From positions 64,001 through 128,000 of the forward strand of contig JBCBZT010000004.1 in NCBI GenBank assembly GCA_039815185.1: a DNA stretch of 64,000 nucleotides, in the 5' to 3' direction. The notes below the pieces were generated by a model that saw only the letters and a list, made by a program, of their open reading frames with translations, ran no database searches and was not told where the DNA came from. Every line of letters starts with the position of its first letter. Position 1 is the stretch's first letter. Shown in pieces: positions 17,917 to 34,305 of the stretch. Origin of the DNA: Cyanobacteria bacterium P01_A01_bin.123. Lineage in GTDB: Bacteria > Cyanobacteriota > Cyanobacteriia > Phormidesmidales > Phormidesmidaceae. Position numbers and translations under genes: made by a program.

Positions 17917-20805
17917 ATGATGAAGCGCTCTAGATGGCGATCGCGTTTAATAGCCGTAACCCTAGCGATCGCGACATGGCTGTTAGTGACGGTGCCCGCA
18001 CAATCCACTCTCCCTTTCAATTGGGAAGACAATGTCTGGCTGCAGACAGTTGCGAATCGTCAAAATGTCCAGCAAAACAATGTCCTGCGAACAAAGCAAC
18101 AAGATTCAGGGCAGACAGTCTTGCTGAGGGTTGAAGGGGTTTTAGAAACAGGTGATCTAGCTTTCGAGGATGGCAGCCTCTACGACGTTCATCCCTTTGA
18201 AGGCGAATCAGGGCAAGCCATCACGATTCACATGATGAGTGACGAATTTGACACTTATTTAATCCTGGTCAATGCAGAAGGAGAAGCCATTGGCAGAAAT
18301 GACGATTCAACATCCTTAGAAACCAACTCAACCCTGACAATATTGCTGCCTGAAACAGGGACTTATCGCATCATTGCTAACGCGTTTGATGCCACTGGAC
18401 AAGGAAACTATCAAATAACGGTTTCAATCGCGAGTGATTTTGAGGTTCAGCAATTAGAAGCTGATCGTTTGTTCCTCCAAGGCGGTCAGCAATATCAAGT
18501 CAGCCAGTTTCAAGCTGCTTTGCAGTCTTGGCAGCAAGCCTTAGAGATTTATCAATCCATCGGCATGTCTGAAACAGCAGTTTACGCCTTAAGCGGTATA
18601 GGCAATGCCTATTTTTCCCTAGGTCAATATCAGCAAGCCAGCAGTTTTTACCATCAATCTTTAGAGATGGCTGATGATCTCGGCGATCGCCAAGCCCAAG
18701 CCACTGCTCTTGGCAACTTAGGTCTGATTTACGAAGCTTTAGGTCAATATCAGCAAGCGATTGAATCGCATCAGCAATCCTTAGCTGTCGATCGCGCCAT
18801 TAACAATCGTCGAGGAGAAGCCGTTTCCCTAGGCAACTTGGGTAATGTCTATTATTTTCTAGGTCAATATCAACGAGCCATTGAGTTTCATCAGCAATCG
18901 TTGGCTATCAATCGCAACATCAGCAATCGTCAAGGAGAAGCCGTTTCCCTAGGGAATTTAGGGCTTGCCCATGGCGCATTAGACCAGTATCAGCAGGCAA
19001 TTGACTTGCATCAGCAATCGTTGGCTATCAATCGCGATATTGGTAATCGTCAGGGAGAAAACACGACCCTCGATAATTTAGGGAGTGTCTATTATTCATT
19101 GGGTCAATATCAGCAAGCACTTGACTTGTATCAGCAAGCTTTGGACATCGCTCTCGAAATTGGCGATCGCCAAGGCGAAGGCAACCTCCTTGTCAATCTG
19201 GGTGAAATTCACAATGCCCTGGGTCAATATCAGCAAGCGCTTGACTTGTATCAGCAAGCCTTGGGTATTGCTCGCGAAATTAGCGATCGTCAAGTGGAAG
19301 CCATTGCTCTTAATAACCTCGGTTCGTTGTTCATCAGCACCAATCAATGGGCTGAAGCTGAAATCGCACTAACACAATCTATCGAAGCCTACGAATTACT
19401 GCGAACTGATTTAAGCGATACTCAACTCATCTCTATCGCCGATACCCAAGCCGCTACCTATGCCCACCTAGAAAAGGCATTAACCGCCCAAGGCAAAACA
19501 GCCGAGGCACTAGAAACCACAGAACGCGCCCGCGCTCGCGCCTTCGTGCTGCAACTTGCGAGCCGCCTCTCCAACCCGGAAGAACCAGTTGCCCCAGATG
19601 GCTCTAATCTAGATGGCTCTAACGGTGTAAATTCTGCTTCTATTGCTGAGATTCAGCAAATCGCCCGCAACCAAAACGCCACACTCGTCACCTACTCCCT
19701 GATTTTCGATGAAGCTTTGTATATCTGGGTCGTGCAACCCTCCGGCGAGGTTGAGTTTCGCTCGGTGGAATTGGGTGAGTCTGATAGTCTCCCCAACCCT
19801 ATTGCCACGATTGATGGCCCCGTTTATCGCGGTGATTCAGATGCTTCAGAACTAGACACCTTAGTTGCCGAGACGCGGGCAGGCATTGGGGTTGTGGCTA
19901 ACAGCATTCCTTCTGAACGACTCAAAGACTTGCACCAGATTTTGATTGATCCAATCGCAGATTTACTCCCGACTGATCCCAATGCAAATGTCGTTTTCGT
20001 GCCCCAAGGGAGTCTCTTCTTAGTGCCGTTTGCGGCCTTGCAAGATACTGACGGCACCTACCTGATCGAAAAACACACGGTATTAACTGCCCCGTCAATT
20101 CAGGTGTTAGGGCTAGTGTCTAGGGACGCCCCTGGCCAGAGCAGTGCAGCGTTGTTACAACAAGATAACGCCTTAGTGGTGGGGAATCCGCTCATGCCAG
20201 AGGTTGTCGTTCTGGGTGATGAGGGACTACAACCCATTCGACTTGCTCCCTTACCTGGAGCCGAAGCTGAAGCTTTAGACATTGGCAATTTCCTCAACAT
20301 TTCGCCCTTGATTGGCGATCAAGCCACCGAAGCCCAGATTAAGCAACAGCTTCCCACGGCTTCCCTAATTCACCTGGCAACTCACGGCTTGCTCGAATAT
20401 GGTGACCCCCAATCTTCCGGCGTTCTAGATTTACCGGGTGCCCTGGCCCTCACCCCTGGCGATGGCGAAGACGGATTGCTGACTGCCGCCGAGATTCTAG
20501 AAATGGACTTGCAGGCCGAGCTAGCGGTTCTAAGTGCTTGCGATACAGGGCGTGGACGAATTACGGGAGACGGTGTGGTAGGGCTGTCGCGCTCCTTAAT
20601 TACAGCTGGCGTCCCCAGCGTAATTGTGTCGCTGTGGGCGGTTCCCGATGCGCCCACAGCTGCGTTGATGACGGAATTTTATCGTCAGCTCCAGCAGGGG
20701 CGGAGCAAGGCTCAGGCGCTACGGCAGGCGATGTTAGCAACGTTGAACGATTCACCGGAACCAGTCAATTGGGCAGCGTTTACATTAATGGGAGCAATCG
20801 AGTAG
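17917..20805 (+). CDS. PPC-TPR-CHAT protein 3
   Basis: Same architecture; IHLATHG and LSACDTG present. Confidence 0.92.
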   Translation: MMKRSRWRSRLIAVTLAIATWLLVTVPAQSTLPFNWEDNVWLQTVANRQNVQQNNVLRTKQQDSGQTVLLRVEGVLETGDLAFEDGSLYDVHPFEGESGQAITIHMMSDEFDTYLILVNAEGEAIGRNDDSTSLETNSTLTILLPETGTYRIIANAFDATGQGNYQITVSIASDFEVQQLEADRLFLQGGQQYQVSQFQAALQSWQQALEIYQSIGMSETAVYALSGIGNAYFSLGQYQQASSFYHQSLEMADDLGDRQAQATALGNLGLIYEALGQYQQAIESHQQSLAVDRAINNRRGEAVSLGNLGNVYYFLGQYQRAIEFHQQSLAINRNISNRQGEAVSLGNLGLAHGALDQYQQAIDLHQQSLAINRDIGNRQGENTTLDNLGSVYYSLGQYQQALDLYQQALDIALEIGDRQGEGNLLVNLGEIHNALGQYQQALDLYQQALGIAREISDRQVEAIALNNLGSLFISTNQWAEAEIALTQSIEAYELLRTDLSDTQLISIADTQAATYAHLEKALTAQGKTAEALETTERARARAFVLQLASRLSNPEEPVAPDGSNLDGSNGVNSASIAEIQQIARNQNATLVTYSLIFDEALYIWVVQPSGEVEFRSVELGESDSLPNPIATIDGPVYRGDSDASELDTLVAETRAGIGVVANSIPSERLKDLHQILIDPIADLLPTDPNANVVFVPQGSLFLVPFAALQDTDGTYLIEKHTVLTAPSIQVLGLVSRDAPGQSSAALLQQDNALVVGNPLMPEVVVLGDEGLQPIRLAPLPGAEAEALDIGNFLNISPLIGDQATEAQIKQQLPTASLIHLATHGLLEYGDPQSSGVLDLPGALALTPGDGEDGLLTAAEILEMDLQAELAVLSACDTGRGRITGDGVVGLSRSLITAGVPSVIVSLWAVPDAPTAALMTEFYRQLQQGRSKAQALRQAMLATLNDSPEPVNWAAFTLMGAIE

Positions 20806-20831
20806 TCGGTCGATTTTTTTGAGACGGGGCA

Positions 20832-23468
20832 ATGATAAAGCGCTTTAGATGGCGATCGCGATTAATGGCCTTAACCTTAGCAGTGGCAATCTGGCTGTGG
20901 GTCACGGTGTCAGCTCAATCAACTTACCCTGCTTATCCAGAAGGCAATGGTCTACCACAGGTAGCTTTTAGCCATGAGACCCGTCAAACTAAGCAGCAAG
21001 ACTCGGATGGCACGGTCTTACTTGAAGTCGAAGGCACCTTAGAAACGGGCGATTTAACGCTTGAGAATGGCAGTCTCTACGATATTCATCCCTTTGAAGG
21101 TGAAGCCGGGCAGGTCATCACGATTCAGATGATCAGTGATGAGTTTGACACGTTTATCGGGTTGGTAAACCCCGCGAGACAACCCATTGGTGAAAACAAC
21201 GACACAACGGCCTCAGAGACGAACTCAACCCTGACGATAACGCTGCCTGAAGCCGGAATGTATTTGATTATTGCCATTGCCTTTAATGACGCCGGGCAAG
21301 GGAACTATCGGTTAATCGTTTCAACCGCTAACCCCGCTGAAATTCAGCGATTAGAAGCTAACCATCTGCTCGATCAAGGCAATCAATACTATCGAACCAG
21401 CCAGTTTCAAGCCGCGCTGGAATCTTGGCAGCAAGCGTTAGACCGTTATCAATCGATTGGCGAAACCTATGGCACGAGCAAAGCTCTACGCACCAGCGAA
21501 GCGATCACGCTAGACCACTTGGGTCTTGCTTACTATGCTCTGGGTCAATATCAGCAGGCGATTGAGTTCCATCAGCAAGCCTTAGCAATTGTTCGCGAAA
21601 TCGAGCTTCCTCAACTGGAAGCAAACACGCTGGACAACTTGGGACGGACTTACTATGCTCTGGAACAGTATCAGCAGTCGCTTGAATCCTATCAGCAAGT
21701 GTTGGAGATTGCTCGCGAAGTCGGCGATCGTGAGGATGAGGCCGACGCTCTGAGCAACTTAGGACTCGCCTATCATGCCCTAGGCCAATATGAACGTGCT
21801 ATTGACGTTTATCAGCAATCGCTGGCAATCGCTGGCAACATCGGCGATCGCCAAGGGGAAGCGAATGCCCTCAACAATCTTGGCGGTGTTTATGATGCTT
21901 TGGGTCAATCTCAGCGCGCGATCGCGTCTTATCAGCAGTCTCTAGACATTACCCGCGACATCAGCGATCGCAGCGGTGAAGCCAAGTCTCTGAGTAACTT
22001 AGGTCTATCGTTGATCAACACCGATCAACTCGCTGAAGCTGAAAGCGTCCTCGCGCAATCCGTTGAAATCTTTGAATCCCTGCGAACTGACTTACCTGAT
22101 GCCCAACTTATTGCACTCGCAGATACCCAAGCCGCTACCTACACACTGCTAGAACAAGTGTTGATAGCTCAAGGTAAAACCGCTGAAGCCCTGGAAACCA
22201 CAGAACGTGCTCGCGCCCGCGCCTTCGTACTGCAACTTGCGAGGCGTCTCTCAAACCGGGAAGAGCCCACTACCATAGCCGAACCCGAAGCCATAGCGCT
22301 GCCCACGATTGCCGAAATTCAGCAAACTGCCCGTGACCAAAACGCCACACTGGTGACCTATTCTCTGATTTTTGATCAAGCCTTGTATATATGGGTCGTG
22401 CAACCTTCCGGAGAGATTGAGTTTCGCTCAGTTGGGTTTGACGGGTCTGGCAGTCTCTCGAACCCGATCGCCGCCATTGATGGCCCAGTCTATCGGGGCA
22501 ACTCAAACCCCTCAGAACTCAACACCCTAATCGCAAACTCACGCAGAGGCATTGGCGTTGTCGAAGGAATTTCCACTGAACAACTCAAGGCACTGCACCA
22601 AGTGCTGATTGATCCAATTGCCGATTTGTTGCCCACCGATCCAGAAACCAATGTTGTTTTCATCCCTCAAGGCAGTTTATTCCTGATTCCCTTTGCAGCA
22701 CTGCAAAATGCGGCGGGAACTTACTTGATTGAAGCGCACACGGTGTTGACTGCGCCGTCGATTCAGGTATTGGATTTAACGAGTCAGGAAGCCCAAGGGG
22801 GGAGAAGAGAAGGGTTTTTATTGCACGATAGGGCATTGGTGGTAGGAAATCCAGTGATGCCTGAGGTGTGGCTACCGAGTGAAGATGGCTTACAAGCGTT
22901 ACAGCTTGTGCCCCTTCCTGGTGCAGAAGTCGAAGCGTTGGCGGTTGGCGATTTTTTAGACGTTGCACCATTGATTGGCGATCAAGCCACCGAAGCGCAG
23001 GTCAAACAGCAGCTTGCCAATGCTTCGCTGATTCACTTCGCGACCCATGGCTTGCTGGAATATGGCGACCCTCAAGCTTCCGGAGTGCTGGATATACCAG
23101 GCGCTCTAGCCCTGACTCCCGGCAATGGCGAAGATGGCTTACTGACGGCAGCTGAGATTCTAGAGATGGACTTGCAGGCCGAGCTAGCAGTTCTCAGCGC
23201 CTGCGATACAGGACGGGGGCGGATTACGGGAGATGGTGTGGTCGGACTGTCGCGCTCCTTAATTACAGCTGGTGTGCCCAGCGTGGTCGTATCGCTATGG
23301 GCGGTTCCCGATGCACCGACAGCGGCGTTGATGACGGAATTTTATCGTCAACTCCAACAGGGGCAAACCAAGTCTCAAGCTTTACGGCAGGCCATGTTAG
23401 TGACCCTAAAGAATTCTCCAGAACCCATCAACTGGGCAGCGTTTACGCTGATTGGCGCATCAGATTAG
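20832..23468 (+). CDS. PPC-TPR-CHAT protein 4 (fewer TPRs)
   Basis: Same architecture; IHFATHG and LSACDTG present. Confidence 0.92.
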   Translation: MIKRFRWRSRLMALTLAVAIWLWVTVSAQSTYPAYPEGNGLPQVAFSHETRQTKQQDSDGTVLLEVEGTLETGDLTLENGSLYDIHPFEGEAGQVITIQMISDEFDTFIGLVNPARQPIGENNDTTASETNSTLTITLPEAGMYLIIAIAFNDAGQGNYRLIVSTANPAEIQRLEANHLLDQGNQYYRTSQFQAALESWQQALDRYQSIGETYGTSKALRTSEAITLDHLGLAYYALGQYQQAIEFHQQALAIVREIELPQLEANTLDNLGRTYYALEQYQQSLESYQQVLEIAREVGDREDEADALSNLGLAYHALGQYERAIDVYQQSLAIAGNIGDRQGEANALNNLGGVYDALGQSQRAIASYQQSLDITRDISDRSGEAKSLSNLGLSLINTDQLAEAESVLAQSVEIFESLRTDLPDAQLIALADTQAATYTLLEQVLIAQGKTAEALETTERARARAFVLQLARRLSNREEPTTIAEPEAIALPTIAEIQQTARDQNATLVTYSLIFDQALYIWVVQPSGEIEFRSVGFDGSGSLSNPIAAIDGPVYRGNSNPSELNTLIANSRRGIGVVEGISTEQLKALHQVLIDPIADLLPTDPETNVVFIPQGSLFLIPFAALQNAAGTYLIEAHTVLTAPSIQVLDLTSQEAQGGRREGFLLHDRALVVGNPVMPEVWLPSEDGLQALQLVPLPGAEVEALAVGDFLDVAPLIGDQATEAQVKQQLANASLIHFATHGLLEYGDPQASGVLDIPGALALTPGNGEDGLLTAAEILEMDLQAELAVLSACDTGRGRITGDGVVGLSRSLITAGVPSVVVSLWAVPDAPTAALMTEFYRQLQQGQTKSQALRQAMLVTLKNSPEPINWAAFTLIGASD

Positions 23469-23707: not shown

Positions 23708-24805
23708 TTAGCCGATAGACGGTGATCCAGGGGTTGCCACTGGCACAACATCATTAGCTGCCAAATCGAGCGGAAAGTTATGCGCATTGCGCTCGTGCAT
23801 CACTTCCATGCCTAGATTGGCTCGGTTAATCACATCTGCCCAAGTGCCAATTACACGACCCTGTGTATCCAAAATGGACTGATTGAAATTAAATCCATTC
23901 AGGTTGAATGCCATGGTGCTGATGCCCAATGCTGTAAACCAGATACCGAACACGGGCCAAGCGGCAAGGAAAAAGTGGAGTGACCGACTATTGGCCTTGA
24001 CACCCAAAACGATCTCATTGGTTCGCCCTACCAGACGACCAAAGTAGCCATGGGCCGCCATGATGTTGTAGGTTTCCTCTTCTTGACCAAACTTGTAGCC
24101 GTAGTTCTGAGACTCAGTCTCGGTGGTTTCCCGAACTAAGGTAGAGGTCACTAGGGAGCCGTGCATCGCACTAAAAAATGCACCGCCAAATACCCCCGCT
24201 ACACCCAACATGTGGAAGGGGTGCATCAAGATGTTGTGCTCAGCTTGGAACACGAACATGAAGTTGAAGGTACCCGAGATACCCAAGGGCATGCCATCAG
24301 AGAAGGAACCCTGACCCAAGGGGTAAACCAAGAACACAGCGGTAGCTGCGGAAACGGGTGCAGAGTAAGCCACACAAATCCAAGGACGCATGCCCAATCG
24401 GTAGGACAGCTCCCACTGACGACCCAGATAAGAAAAAATGCCGATGAGGAAGTGGAAGACAATGAACTGGTAAGGCCCACCGTTGTACAACCACTCATCG
24501 AGGGAAGCTGCTTCCCAGATGGGGTAGAAGTGCAGGCCAATGGCGTTGGAGGAAGGTACCACTGCACCGGAGATGATGTTGTTGCCGTACATCAAGGAAC
24601 CGGCAACGGGCTCACGGATACCGTCGATGTCAACGGGAGGAGCGGCGATGAAGGCGATGACGAAGCAGGTGGTGGCAGTCAGCAGCGTGGGGATCATCAA
24701 TACGCCAAACCAACCTACATAGAGGCGGTTTTCGGTGGAGGTGATCCAGTTACAAAACCGCTGCCACAGATTGACGCGATCGCGTCTCTGCAGAGTTGTG
24801 GTCAT
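23708..24805 (-). CDS. psbA: photosystem II D1 protein, atypical QB-loop variant (365 aa)
   Basis: Near-canonical D1 with Y161, D170, E189, H190, H198, H215, H252, H272, H332, E333, H337, D342 and A344 equivalents present, and Q130. Residues 259-266 are replaced by 13 aa. Confidence 0.97.
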
Positions 24806-24840
24806 GGTTAAGGATAAAGAAAAACGACATGATAAAGCAG

Positions 24841-24927
24841 TTAACTAACTAGATAGTTAAACTAACTTGTTAGTTAATTTAAAGTAGGAATTTAAATCTG
24901 TCAATGACTTTTTAACTAGTTAGTTAA
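24841..24927. promoter_or_regulatory. three palindromic putative TetR operators in the psbA/tetR divergent promoter
   Basis: AACTAAC-TA-GATAGTT (24843-24858), perfect AACTAAC-TT-GTTAGTT (24860-24875), and TTTTAAC-TA-GTTAGTT (24910-24925). Confidence 0.8.
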
Positions 24928-24994
24928 TTTCTTGCGAGAAGCTACCCTGGCTGAACCCAGATGGAGCATCGTATTCTAGGTATAGACACCTTGT

Positions 24995-25669
24995 ATGGAG
25001 CCCGTAGTGAAGTCATCAGCCAAAGGCAAACGATCCGCGACAACTCGAACAGTCCGCAATCCAGAATCTACCAAGGCGCAAATTCTAGATGCTGCTGAGG
25101 AAGAGTTTGCCCGCTATGGGTTGGCAGGAGCCCGAACCGAGCCAATCGCCGCCAATACAGGCGTGACTAAAGCCATGATTCACTACTACTTCGGTACTAA
25201 AGAAGAGCTGTATCAGGCTGTTTTGAAGCGCCACGCAGCGTCTTTTCTAAATGCGGTTGAGCAGCTCGATCTAAATGATTTATCACCTGAAGAAGCCCTA
25301 AAGAAGATTCTGAGGCTTGCTGTCGTGCACGAAAGTACGCAGCCCTATCAAGGTAAAGTTCTGCTCCACGAAGCGATGACCAATGAGGGTAAATATTTCA
25401 AGCTCACGGGATGGGAAGTTCCACTCGGTACATTGGCAGAAGTTTTAGCAAGAGGCGTCAAGGAGGGCTGTTTTCGCACCCTCGATCCTTGGTTAACGAT
25501 GGTTCACATTATGGGGGTGATAACCTTTTACTTCAACGCAGCCAATAACCTTAAGCAACTTGCGCCCTTGAACGACTGTCAAAGTCCAGAAGCAATTGAG
25601 CAATTTGAAGAGTCTGCGATCGCGTTTATCCTAGCAGGTATACTCAAGCAGCCTTTAGTGGACGATTAG
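24995..25669 (+). CDS. TetR/AcrR family transcriptional regulator
   Basis: ILDAAEEEFARYGLAGARTEPIAANTGVTKAMIHYYFGTKEELY helix-turn-helix, plus a TetR-type C-terminal domain (GVKEGCFR). Confidence 0.95.
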   Translation: MEPVVKSSAKGKRSATTRTVRNPESTKAQILDAAEEEFARYGLAGARTEPIAANTGVTKAMIHYYFGTKEELYQAVLKRHAASFLNAVEQLDLNDLSPEEALKKILRLAVVHESTQPYQGKVLLHEAMTNEGKYFKLTGWEVPLGTLAEVLARGVKEGCFRTLDPWLTMVHIMGVITFYFNAANNLKQLAPLNDCQSPEAIEQFEESAIAFILAGILKQPLVDD

Positions 25670-32173: not shown

Positions 32174-32191
32174 GTTACAATCGTTTACAAA
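32174..32191 (+). promoter_or_regulatory. HLR1 (RpaB) direct-repeat site
   Basis: GTTACAAT-CG-TTTACAAA fits (G/T)TTACA(T/A)(T/A)-N2-(G/T)TTACA(T/A)(T/A) exactly, about 65 bp upstream of the ABC1 kinase. Confidence 0.7.
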
Positions 32192-32259
32192 TACTAATTT
32201 TGATTTAATAGTTTTATAGAACGACCGCTTAGCTCACCTATCCACAGATCCCATTGGCT

Positions 32260-34305
32260 ATGAATTCGCCTTCCTCTCGGTACTCCAGCGATATCCTTAA
32301 TCCGCAAACGGTGACTGTTGCTAGTGAGCCTATAGCTGAGCCCATCAGTCCAGTTGATCCGCCTGCTGTACGGCACAACGGTGTGATTAATGATCCTACG
32401 GATGTCATGGTTTACGATCCTGAGGCGATCGCAGACTATTACGATTCCAGATGGCTACGAGTCTTCTGGCGGTTTCTCTCTATCTTTTGGCCATTAGCGA
32501 GCTTTGCCTTATCCGTCTGGCTCGATGCGCGTTTAGGGCTGGCGCAGCGTAATGAACGTAAGCAGGCTGAGCGATTGCGTAAAATTGTGACTCAGCTTGG
32601 GCCCGCTTACATCAAGGTGGGGCAGGCGCTTTCCACTCGACCTGATTTGGTTTCTCCAGTTTATCTAGAAGAATTGACCCGATTGCAAGATCAGCTACCC
32701 GCTTTTTCTAATGACATTGCTTACCGCTTCATTGAAGAAGAACTGGGCGATTCTCCTGAGACACTATATGCAGAACTTTCTCCCCACCCTGTGGCCGCAG
32801 CTTCTTTGGGACAGGTTTATCGCGGTCGCTTAAAGACTGGCGAAGAAGTCGCCGTTAAAGTTCAACGGCCGGGGTTGGCCCAGCGCATCACCTTAGACAT
32901 CTATATTTTGCGACAGTTGGCGCGATTGGCAACTCGACTGATTCCCCAGGTTCGTAGCGACCTGATTGGGATTATGGACGAATTTGGGGCACGCATCTTC
33001 GAAGAGATGGATTATACCCACGAGGGCCAAAATGCTAAGCGATTTGCTCAGCTTTACGGCCACCTGCGAGACATTTATGTGCCTCATATCTACACCCAGT
33101 ACACCGGGCGTCGAGTACTGACCATGGAGTGGATTAACGGGACTAAACTGACAAAGATTACTGAACTAAAAGCCCAGGGCATTGATGCCAGCTATTTGAT
33201 TGAAGTGGGGGTGCAGTGCTCGTTGAGGCAACTGCTAGAGCACGGCTTTTTCCATGCTGACCCCCACCCTGGCAATCTGTTGGCTACCCCCGATGGCAAA
33301 CTCGCCTATCTAGACTTCGGCATGATGAGCGAAGTCAAGCCCTATCAACGCTATGGCTTGATTGAAGCGATCGTCCATATGGTCAACCGTGACTTTGAGG
33401 GATTGGCCCAAGACTATATCAAGCTGGAGTTTTTGACCCCTGATACCGATTTGGAGCCAATTGTGCCTGCCTTGACTAACGTGTTCAACAATGCGTTGGG
33501 GGCTAGCGTCGCTGAGCTGAACTTCAAAAGCATCACCGATGAGTTCTCCGCTTTGATGTACGAGTACCCCTTTCGGGTGCCCGCTTACTACGCACTGATT
33601 ATCCGCTCTCTTGTCACCTTAGAAGGCATTGCGATCAACGTTGACCCTGACTTTAAGGTACTCAGTAAGGCTTATCCTTATGTCTCAAAACGGCTTCTGT
33701 CTGACCCAGCTCCCCAGTTGCGGGCTTCGTTGAACGATTTGCTGTTTAAGGACGGGCGGTTTCGCTGGAATCGGCTGGAGAATCTACTGAAAAACGCCCG
33801 CGACAGTGAAGATTACGACCTCAGCAAGGTGCTGGATCAAACCCTTGATTTCCTTTTCTCAGAGCGAGGAGAATTCATCCGTGTTGGCATTGCAGATGAA
33901 ATTGTTAAGCAGGTTGATACCTTTGGGCAAAGCCTAATGCATAATCTGACTCAAACCGTTCAGGAGCGATTGGGGACCAGATCGCCTCAACCCCCTAAAG
34001 TGGCGACGACAACGGCGGAGAAAAGTCAGGAGCAGCAAAACTTTGATCATTTGGTCAGCATTTTGCAAATCCTGCGGGAAACCGAAAGCTTTGATGTGAC
34101 TAAAGTTGTGGCTATTTTGCCCCAAGTTTTGTTTAGGTCTGAAACCCGTGAAATGGGACAGCGGATTTTCGGAGGACTTGCCCAGCGGGCAGCAACCCGA
34201 TTCATTCGAGAAGTGTTGCTGGCGGAGCAGCAACCGGAGGGCACCGCAATACTGCAGGATTGGGAAACTGTTCCGCGATCGCTGCCTGCAGGCGTATCTC
34301 GCTAA
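32260..34305 (+). CDS. AarF/ABC1/UbiB atypical kinase
   Basis: LGPAYIKVGQALSTRPD, AAASLGQVY, VAVKVQRP, FFHADPHPGN, DFGMM. Start is ATG 32260 or TTG 32254. Confidence 0.93.
   Translation: MNSPSSRYSSDILNPQTVTVASEPIAEPISPVDPPAVRHNGVINDPTDVMVYDPEAIADYYDSRWLRVFWRFLSIFWPLASFALSVWLDARLGLAQRNERKQAERLRKIVTQLGPAYIKVGQALSTRPDLVSPVYLEELTRLQDQLPAFSNDIAYRFIEEELGDSPETLYAELSPHPVAAASLGQVYRGRLKTGEEVAVKVQRPGLAQRITLDIYILRQLARLATRLIPQVRSDLIGIMDEFGARIFEEMDYTHEGQNAKRFAQLYGHLRDIYVPHIYTQYTGRRVLTMEWINGTKLTKITELKAQGIDASYLIEVGVQCSLRQLLEHGFFHADPHPGNLLATPDGKLAYLDFGMMSEVKPYQRYGLIEAIVHMVNRDFEGLAQDYIKLEFLTPDTDLEPIVPALTNVFNNALGASVAELNFKSITDEFSALMYEYPFRVPAYYALIIRSLVTLEGIAINVDPDFKVLSKAYPYVSKRLLSDPAPQLRASLNDLLFKDGRFRWNRLENLLKNARDSEDYDLSKVLDQTLDFLFSERGEFIRVGIADEIVKQVDTFGQSLMHNLTQTVQERLGTRSPQPPKVATTTAEKSQEQQNFDHLVSILQILRETESFDVTKVVAILPQVLFRSETREMGQRIFGGLAQRAATRFIREVLLAEQQPEGTAILQDWETVPRSLPAGVSR

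Follow-up and report, generated by a model that had tools for sequence, protein, structure and literature searches.

Why would a cyanobacterium carry, divergently from a gene for a TetR-family regulator, a psbA whose product keeps the water-oxidizing side of the D1 subunit of photosystem II (PSII) and has a different lid over the QB plastoquinone pocket? The question is raised by a locus in a 64,000-nucleotide stretch of the genome of Cyanobacteria bacterium P01_A01_bin.123 (positions 64,001 to 128,000 of contig JBCBZT010000004.1), hereafter the window. An earlier examination of its letters alone, the sequence-only reading, had proposed that the TetR senses a QB-site inhibitor or a quinone and thereby switches on a replacement D1. 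What appears to be new, judging from the genome comparisons reported here, is a conserved family of D1 proteins defined by a loop in the QB lid, together with a TetR/operator pairing that recurs in dozens of species. D1 isoforms as such are of an already known kind, among which this one stands out by its unusually clean regulatory anatomy. Inhibitor sensing and resistance offer a plausible explanation, which we weigh below against other accounts of the same facts.

A D1 protein with an intact donor side and a rebuilt QB lid

The predicted product of the window psbA matches the PF00124 profile over residues 28-332 (E = 5.3e-91) and the solved D1 protein 6wj6_A (E = 1e-215). It is collinear with the Synechocystis D1 (6wj6/7n8o), with about 90% identity outside the loop, and follows the standard numbering through L258. 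In the alignment to 6wj6 the Mn4CaO5-side residues D170, E189, H332, E333, H337, D342 and A344 are all retained, as are the YZ pair Y161/H190, the P680 ligand H198 and the non-haem iron ligands H215 and H272; D170, E189, H332, E333, D342, A344 and Y161/H190 are, in addition, invariant in the alignment of the variant family. Alignments likewise show E244, Y246, H252, F255 and L271 of the pocket and bicarbonate side to be in place, and the protein runs on for 16 residues beyond A344. The departure lies in the lid itself, where the canonical stretch I259-N266 gives way to a longer loop (Table 1): the QB contacts S264 and F265 are absent and Arg, Asn and Glu are brought in, the residue equivalent to 264 in the C-terminal register being V, T or A across the family. 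Comparison with the Synechocystis protein hence upholds the initial description of a psbA with all the water-oxidation ligands and a rebuilt QB pocket. A frameshift, an assembly artefact or a pseudogene as the origin of the loop can be ruled out because 45 other genomes have the same motif, with synonymous sites that have diverged to saturation.

Table 1. Features of the psbA-tetR locus (positions are those of the window)
Feature	Positions	Strand	Remarks
psbA for the QB-lid variant D1	23708..24805	-	365 aa; open reading frame, PF00124, alignment to 6wj6
QB-lid cassette	23993..24031	-	13 codons; replaces IFQYASFN (D1 259-266), net +5 residues
Codon 209, Ala (S209A)	24179..24181	-	comparison of family and standard columns
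Operator palindrome in the transcribed leader, TTAACTAACTAGATAGTTAA	24841..24860	.	imperfect, 20 bp; about +10 to +29 of the predicted mRNA
Main downstream operator, TAAACTAACTTGTTAGTTAA	24858..24877	.	imperfect, 20 bp; abuts/overlaps the -10, covers the predicted start
Sigma-70-type psbA promoter	24876..24904	-	TTGACA 24904-24899, 17 nt, TAAATT 24881-24876
Upstream operator	24912..24929	.	3 nt 5' of the -35; middle 4 bp shorter, TTAACTA-GT/AC-TAGTTAA type
TetR-family regulator, predicted repressor of the variant psbA	24995..25669	+	224 aa; PF00440 and PF17938 (TetR_C_29)

The loop defines a conserved and patchily distributed family

A protein search limited to the loop region (residues 246-290) returned mostly standard D1; the loop is nevertheless present in 15 of the 19 database D1 proteins that were aligned, 14 of these being among the 21 best loop-region matches, and their sources include Leptolyngbyaceae, Chroococcidiopsidaceae, Chroococcales and Anabaena. 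The family was searched for at the DNA level with a degenerate pattern for HGYFxRLxGRxNE, which has one match in the window against 0 expected. Over a collection of genomes from 185,579 species it matched 45 species genomes, recovering the D1 proteins with an insertion between GRL and NSRSLH for which the sequence-only reading had suggested a search; the variant is also found on metagenome contigs. To judge from record titles, most carriers are benthic, mat, crust or turf forms; the carriers include Adonisia turfae, Leptolyngbya sp. PCC 7375, Heron Island J and PCC 6406, several Nodosilinea, and also Halomicronema, Coleofasciculus, Chroococcidiopsis, Gloeocapsopsis, Trichormus, Pelatocladus and Anabaena sp. 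CCY 9613. The distribution is rare and patchy: an even sample of the phylum has the pattern in 3 of 401 genomes, the window's own genome counted, and in neither of the two other genomes of the window's family. A look for RNA runs of the source organism gave none; its DNA is contained in marine and coral metagenome runs. Four metatranscriptome runs searched at 80% likeness yielded only the standard psbA of other organisms, with a dip over the loop and tetR without reads.

The family follows the motif H-G-Y-F-[GSA]-R-L-[VI]-G-R-[TL]-N-E-[IVAML]-[ILV]-L-G-[VTA]-x-A-N-S-R-[ST]-L-H-F, in which L267, G268 and A271 (variant numbering) are invariant though not demanded by the search pattern. The 46 DNA versions of the loop are all distinct; over its 13 codons the proportion of synonymous differences (pS) is 0.72, near saturation, and that of nonsynonymous differences (pN) 0.16, and by this measure the loop is evidently under purifying selection. 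A column-by-column comparison set 39 variants against 13 standard G4 copies, the latter taken from six of the carrier genomes. Only the loop and S209A separated the two sets, residue 209 being A in 36 of the 39 variants and S in 12 of the 13 standard copies. As far as these columns tell, the specialization of the variant D1 is confined wholly to the QB pocket.

A dedicated TetR gene with operators fixed on the psbA promoter

The variant psbA and tetR lie head-to-head, as first described, with a spacer of 189 bp between the start codons (24806-24994); that of tetR is conserved among the orthologues. The TetR protein matches PF00440 with E = 6e-13, and its matches to PF17938 and PF14514 exceed the cut-offs. 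By tblastn, 28 of the 45 genome loci have an orthologue of it, with identities of 44-83%. The orthologue is divergent to the variant psbA in 27 of them (27 of the 41 informative loci): in 25 directly adjacent, with spacers of about 190-540 nt, and in two displaced by 1.4-1.7 kb through inserted genes (L035 and L041). In one further locus (L012) a TetR-like gene lies downstream on the same strand. The other loci comprise 12 with a divergent STAND-WD40 gene, one with neither regulator (L049), one 5'-truncated psbA fragment (L018) and three in which the contig ends at or inside psbA and which are uninformative (L022, L029 and L034). The supposition that adjacency to tetR would be conserved thus stands for the 28 loci with an orthologue and fails for the 12 with a STAND gene and for L049. 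In the reciprocal direction, using the 80 best TetR relatives on metagenome contigs, all nine with at least 64% identity are divergent to a psbA; the four of these psbA that reach the loop on their contig are all variants, the other five ending before the loop. Relatives at 45% identity or less have unrelated neighbours (O-methyltransferase, RidA, efflux parts, NfeD) in no pattern.

The spacer contains three copies of an 18-nt unit with 78-100% identity, so that the three palindrome copies noted at the outset are there in the form of two imperfect 20-bp palindromes and one copy shorter by 4 bp. A promoter scan of the spacer gave a single site, on the psbA strand, with 10 of 12 matches against 0.5 expected in shuffles; psbA transcription is predicted to start near 24869, leaving a leader of about 64 nt. 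We stacked the 28 TetR-linked upstream regions in the psbA sense. In 26 of them an exact TTGACA has one palindrome 2-3 nt upstream and is followed by 17 nt, TAnnnT and, directly, a second palindrome of the form AACTAAC-AA/AG-GTTAGTT; the remaining two (L024 and L045) are without an exact TTGACA, L045 having TTGACG there when read by eye. Operator sequence runs from about -60 to -39 and again from where the -10 ends to about +12, an arrangement typical of a repressor that keeps RNA polymerase off the promoter. The fixed positions concern the psbA promoter rather than that of tetR; the -10 of the latter may be a conserved motif, TGTATCCT/CGTATTCT, which was read by eye some 20 nt ahead of the start codon. 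The upstream operator is a full-length palindrome in Nodosilinea-type relatives, and the leader operator, the third site, is present only in the window clade and the PCC 7375 clade. The consensus TAACTAAC-NN-GTTAGTTA persists down to the 44%-identical TetR of Gloeocapsopsis, and the operators remain at psbA in the two loci from which tetR has been displaced. Within the 8.09-Mb source genome, this consensus (16 specified bases) occurs at up to one mismatch only at the two full spacer sites; the one site with two mismatches (C39:394) is within the chance estimate of about two.

The absence of an HLR1 repeat, also remarked on earlier, is confirmed for the spacer at up to three mismatches to KTTACAWWNNKTTACAWW, which we take to be the HLR1 consensus; the window has eight such matches, 10.1 being expected, and each of them is outside the spacer. 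The adjacency at 44-83% identity and the operators fixed in 26 of 28 promoters together back the claim of a dedicated TetR control, and we regard it as highly likely that the TetR represses the variant psbA and is released by a small ligand. Neither of its cysteines is conserved among the orthologues. On this ground thiol-based sensing of redox state or electrophiles, as in NemR-like regulators, is rejected.

The conserved unit is a two-gene cassette of psbA and tetR. Gene content beyond the pair varies between genomes. The cytochrome P450 gene beside the window tetR recurs in none of the 45 loci and the flanks are heterogeneous, on which grounds the P450, the M28 peptidase and the other neighbours are rejected as parts of the system.

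A number of observations concern the surroundings of these elements. Directly downstream of the window psbA are tandem paralogous CHAT-TPR proteins (17917-23468, +; 962 and 878 aa) with near-identical C-terminal halves. At 32174-32191 (+) the window has a perfect match to the HLR1 consensus that we assumed (GTTACAATCGTTTACAAA), about 63 nt upstream of a gene for an ABC1 atypical kinase (32254-34305). Some TetR relatives of 36-41% identity, whose neighbours are not psbA but, for instance, RidA and NfeD (L108-L111 and L155-L165), have sites with up to two mismatches to the palindrome 25-550 nt upstream, and the operator type may be older than its link to psbA. In L096 (1463-3482) a 47%-identity TetR relative is divergent to a psbA of the W260, D1INT-like type that seems to be disrupted in its 5' part, and a search at up to two mismatches gave no operator-like site there. 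The TetR-like gene of L012 (4894-6792; Pelatocladus), which lies 3' of the variant psbA, is likewise 47% identical, and the upstream region of that psbA has a repeat array of the STAND type described below and a TAACTAGTTAGT element before the contig ends 593 nt upstream; L012 may be a hybrid arrangement. A HigB/HigA-like toxin-antitoxin pair (L035:7097-7702) is what separates the operators from tetR in L035, and in L027 (3793-4550) the TetR match falls into two pieces, the gene being possibly frameshifted.

A second regulator type and an HLR1-type locus

In the 12 STAND-paired loci (L013, L014, L015, L025, L026, L028, L040, L043, L044, L047, L051 and L053) the product of the divergent gene has about 1200 aa, with a probable N-terminal helix-turn-helix (HTH) domain ahead of an NB-ARC/NACHT domain and WD40 repeats. 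Ten of these genes are complete; that of L047 is cut off by the contig end, and of the L028 gene just the first 31 codons are seen. The N-terminal region of about 90 residues is conserved at 55-84% identity and has weak Pfam matches to sigma-70 region 4 (E = 0.04-0.1). It is modelled as five helices with a predicted local distance difference test score (pLDDT) of about 90; a Foldseek search with this model gave no match at E <= 0.001, the best local fold matches being weak (E > 0.1) and to DNA-binding HTH domains, for instance SigE/SigD region 4 and KorA. The protein is a probable HTH-STAND transcription factor. The spacers of these loci have four to five AAGTTA direct repeats at a spacing of 10-11 bp, just upstream of a CTGACA -35-like hexamer, and because of this position the STAND regulator probably acts on the repeats as an activator. 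The core of the repeat (AGTTA/TAACT) is also the core of the TetR half-site. The third kind of wiring is that of L049 (4598-5247), where a variant psbA of the window's own clade has neither regulator; the HLR1-like TTTACATTGCGTTACAAA upstream of it gives the impression that an ordinary psbA promoter was taken over.

Placement of the variant among D1 sequences

In a maximum-likelihood tree built without the loop columns, all 39 variants fall in a clade with the 13 standard G4 copies, with a support of 92 in the Shimodaira-Hasegawa-like approximate likelihood ratio test (SH-aLRT), and the D1INT-type (W260), far-red, G2 and ChlF copies fall outside it. Within the free tree the variants are interleaved with resident standard D1, with four changes of label of which at least two are forced by the starred branches; the variants of Nostocales, for instance, group with the Anabaena standard D1 (SH-aLRT 98). 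An approximately unbiased (AU) test does not reject a single variant clade (p = 0.37). Since this test tolerates one clade despite the interleaving, we claim neither repeated gene conversion nor a single origin.

The source genome (8.09 Mb in 133 contigs, the window being on C35) also encodes a standard D1, 89% identical to the variant, and several partial psbA copies. Contig C95 holds a cluster of the far-red light photoacclimation (FaRLiP) type with a far-red-type D1, a ChlF-like super-rogue D1 and psbD (L003, L005 and L006; G000:C95:120816-136058). Another psbA copy (L004; G000:C115:448-1209, -) follows D1 as far as N247, just short of the QB region, and unrelated sequence takes over from there. 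In the Adonisia copy L078 the D1 match ends at about the same place (query residues 1-247), where a run of X prevents comparison with L004. An Rfam scan of the window and L004 found no family and no intron.

What the cassette might do

Nothing but the QB pocket differs in the variant D1, for which reason its purpose very probably concerns QB-site chemistry. Because the whole donor side and the processing site are maintained, the variant PSII should still oxidize water, and on balance the variant D1 probably enters the complex through ordinary turnover to give a water-oxidizing centre with a different QB pocket. What this would be good for is less secure. The account that we place first, tentatively, is that psbA, operators and tetR form a cassette for the inducible replacement of the QB pocket, conferring tolerance by replacement of the target. 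TetR dimers on the operators would block RNA polymerase, which would keep the variant psbA silent until a small, probably lipophilic, ligand frees the repressor; the variant D1 would then be incorporated into PSII through the normal turnover of D1. Ureas, triazines and many of the natural inhibitors of the QB site depend on contacts with the Ser264 hydroxyl and Phe265, which the rebuilt lid would take away. The cassette might thus be switched on by such an inhibitor or a related quinone-like molecule, at a cost in electron transfer from QA to QB, and in other lineages the STAND protein presumably drives the same D1 through the AAGTTA repeats upstream of the -35.

We rank inhibitor tolerance first because a private small-molecule repressor with a one-gene regulon resembles a resistance cassette, because the lost S264 and F265 contacts serve the classical inhibitors, S264A/G being resistance alleles (as given in parts of PMC4408414), and because the trait is patchy and occurs in benthic forms. 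In its fullest form the idea would be that of a self-contained natural herbicide-resistance cassette, whose TetR senses QB-site inhibitors or the quinone-mimic allelochemicals of mat and turf neighbours and whose D1 keeps water oxidation, the STAND version of Nostocales, Chroococcidiopsidales and Coleofasciculaceae being a second, independent wiring; this is possible, and we hold it with still more reserve.

Several points weigh against inhibitor tolerance. The divergent STAND gene in 12 of the 45 loci and the HLR1-like L049 mean that a xenobiotic sensed by TetR cannot be the whole story of the family, an inhibitor-sensing TetR not being obligatory for it. A five-residue insertion with Arg, Asn and Glu could equally abolish quinone binding as retune it, and the AlphaFold2 model of the variant D1, made from a 32-sequence alignment, has a mean pLDDT of 33.9, too low for the loop to be read. 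A PDB sequence search with the TetR found 2qtq, HlyIIR and RutR as the closest solved relatives and in them no clue to a ligand. For G260, R261, N263 and E264, invariance among the 45 loci is circular, the search pattern itself having required these residues.

Close behind inhibitor tolerance comes an isoform that tunes the acceptor side, which would have the same regulation but respond to an endogenous signal such as a quinone or quinol, a lipid or a stress metabolite. We consider it possible, and it fits the STAND and HLR1 wiring better. The lid would here alter QB binding, redox potential or protonation as a means, in dense benthic mats, of withstanding anoxia, desiccation, high light or an over-reduced plastoquinone pool. 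According to parts of PMC4408414, PMC9740203 and PMC12096807, physiological acclimation is what every other known D1 isoform serves. Two unrelated regulators and the HLR1-type L049 suit a signal of cell state better than one foreign chemical, the carriers are mostly benthic, mat, crust or turf forms, and the donor side is intact together with E244, Y246 and H252 of the bicarbonate side. However, the known acclimation isoforms are run by global regulators and are not known to have a repressor of their own, let alone one with an operator that, like that of the variant, has no further copy in the genome. The non-conserved TetR cysteines, moreover, speak against a thiol-based sensor of redox state or electrophiles, and the family is rare and patchy in the manner of an accessory trait.

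An improbable alternative is a D1 that is closed on the acceptor side, the polar loop filling or blocking the QB pocket such that no plastoquinone is reduced. It would park or protect PSII or divert electrons elsewhere, as an acceptor-side counterpart of the rogue or sentinel D1. The loss of both lid contacts to QB (S264 and F265) and the gain of Arg, Asn and Glu are what one might expect of it; the rogue D1 (G2) likewise has an altered QB site and an insertion near G253, as described in parts of PMC4408414, and tight repression would suit a protein that is harmful if made constitutively. But purifying selection on the Mn ligands, YZ and the CtpA processing site would be pointless in a centre unable to turn over, and the pocket residues H215, H252, F255, Y246, E244 and L271 are kept. 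Finally, mere adjacency without control, or a decaying paralogue with a TetR that regulates itself or a distant gene and a loop that is a neutral relic, can be dismissed as very improbable: TetR genes are common and divergent pairs can arise by chance, but the pairing persists to 44% TetR identity across several orders, the operators are fixed on the psbA and not the tetR promoter, stay with psbA after displacement of tetR and have no other good site in the genome, and the loop is under purifying selection.

Significance

A large class of commercial herbicides acts on the QB pocket of D1, as do natural allelochemicals. The pocket is among the most conserved protein surfaces in photosynthesis, and a conserved, selected D1 that rebuilds this surface and keeps water oxidation is a natural experiment on how much change the pocket tolerates. 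If the variant works, it would be a template for an inhibitor-tolerant or retuned PSII, would supply a ready repressor/operator pair whose inducer may report PSII-directed chemicals, and would add to evolutionary schemes a further D1 class beside G0-G4, D1INT and the far-red D1. That one protein has two unrelated private regulators points to a specific signal which current accounts of psbA regulation do not yet include. The question is directly testable because there are carriers in culture, namely Leptolyngbya sp. PCC 7375, PCC 6406, Nodosilinea LEGE and FACHB strains and Gloeocapsopsis crepidinum LEGE 06123.

Full-text literature searches, with Sheridan et al. 2020 and supplements outside their scope, found no description of the QB-lid loop or of a native TetR-psbA pair. 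Neither appears in the accessible parts of Cardona et al. 2015 (PMC4408414), an AlphaFold survey of D1 (PMC12096807), a study of the Fischerella D1INT (PMC9740203) or a 2026 preprint on D1 and D2. In those parts of PMC4408414, Leptolyngbya PCC 7375 and Heron Island J are the organisms with most D1 copies, and the two mentions of an insertion concern other features.

Comparison with known systems

Tree placement, the retained ligands and the absence of D1INT, D1' and far-red markers support the original impression that the protein matches no known D1 class: by its sequence the variant is distinct from the ChlF, rogue, D1', far-red and D1INT classes. For the microaerobic D1' (G3) we take G80A, F158L and T286A to be the markers; the variant has none of them, carrying G80, F158 and T286 (T291 in its own numbering), and is not a D1'. 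The far-red D1 is marked by Y120 (parts of PMC9740203). Residue 120 of the variant is Leu and its gene is on C35, the FaRLiP-type psbA, chlF and psbD being on C95, by which a far-red D1 is excluded.

D1INT is defined by W126 and W260 (PMC9740203, in part) and is presented, after Sheridan et al. 2020, in parts of PMC9740203 and PMC12096807 as a G4-related D1 without an assigned function. The variant resembles it in being G4-related, in its acceptor-side changes and in accompanying a standard D1. Unlike D1INT, which falls outside the variant group in the tree, it has Y126, invariant in the family, and position 260 lies inside the replaced loop. The two carrier genomes examined have separate genes for the QB-lid variant and for copies of the D1INT type (GRLIWQYASF), and membership in this class is rejected. 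The rogue or sentinel D1 (G2) has neither the Mn ligands nor the residues of the bicarbonate site, and its identity to standard D1 is 63-73% (parts of PMC4408414); it shares with the variant an altered QB site lacking the S264 hydroxyl and an insertion in the de-helix region. The variant, in contrast, has every ligand in place, and its identity to the resident standard D1 is 89%. With all Mn-cluster ligands present, and with G2 (L074 and L085) and ChlF (L005) as distinct genes, it belongs to neither G2 nor ChlF.

The acclimation isoforms D1:1/D1:2, D1' and the far-red D1 come closer, all being psbA paralogues with intact water-oxidation ligands that are induced under a special condition and replace the resident D1 through turnover; their role is in physiological acclimation (PMC4408414, PMC9740203 and PMC12096807, each in part). 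The variant differs from them in a replacement of eight lid residues by 13 plus S209A in place of scattered point substitutions, and in a private TetR or STAND regulator with a private operator and no HLR1 in place of global regulators.

Herbicide resistance through psbA is otherwise a matter of alleles such as S264G/A/T, F255Y, V219I, A251V, N266T and L275F. These alter the same pocket, including the loss of the Ser264 hydroxyl. S264 forms a hydrogen bond to QB, and S264A/G are natural resistance alleles with slower transfer from QA to QB (in part from PMC4408414). They are, however, point mutations of the only or main psbA, whereas the variant is a separate, conserved and regulated paralogue with a rebuilt loop.

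For the system as a whole, the closest parallels lie outside photosynthesis. mecA/PBP2a with MecI is an inducible resistance by target replacement, and TetR-TetA is the paradigm of its regulation. The psbA-tetR pair is unlike both in that the target is a subunit of a photosynthetic reaction centre, with the inducer and the insensitivity as hypothetical elements of a system known here from its sequence. It shares with them a repressor gene divergent from a single gene and palindromic operators over the promoter of that gene, whose product in the two known systems substitutes for or protects the target of the drug.

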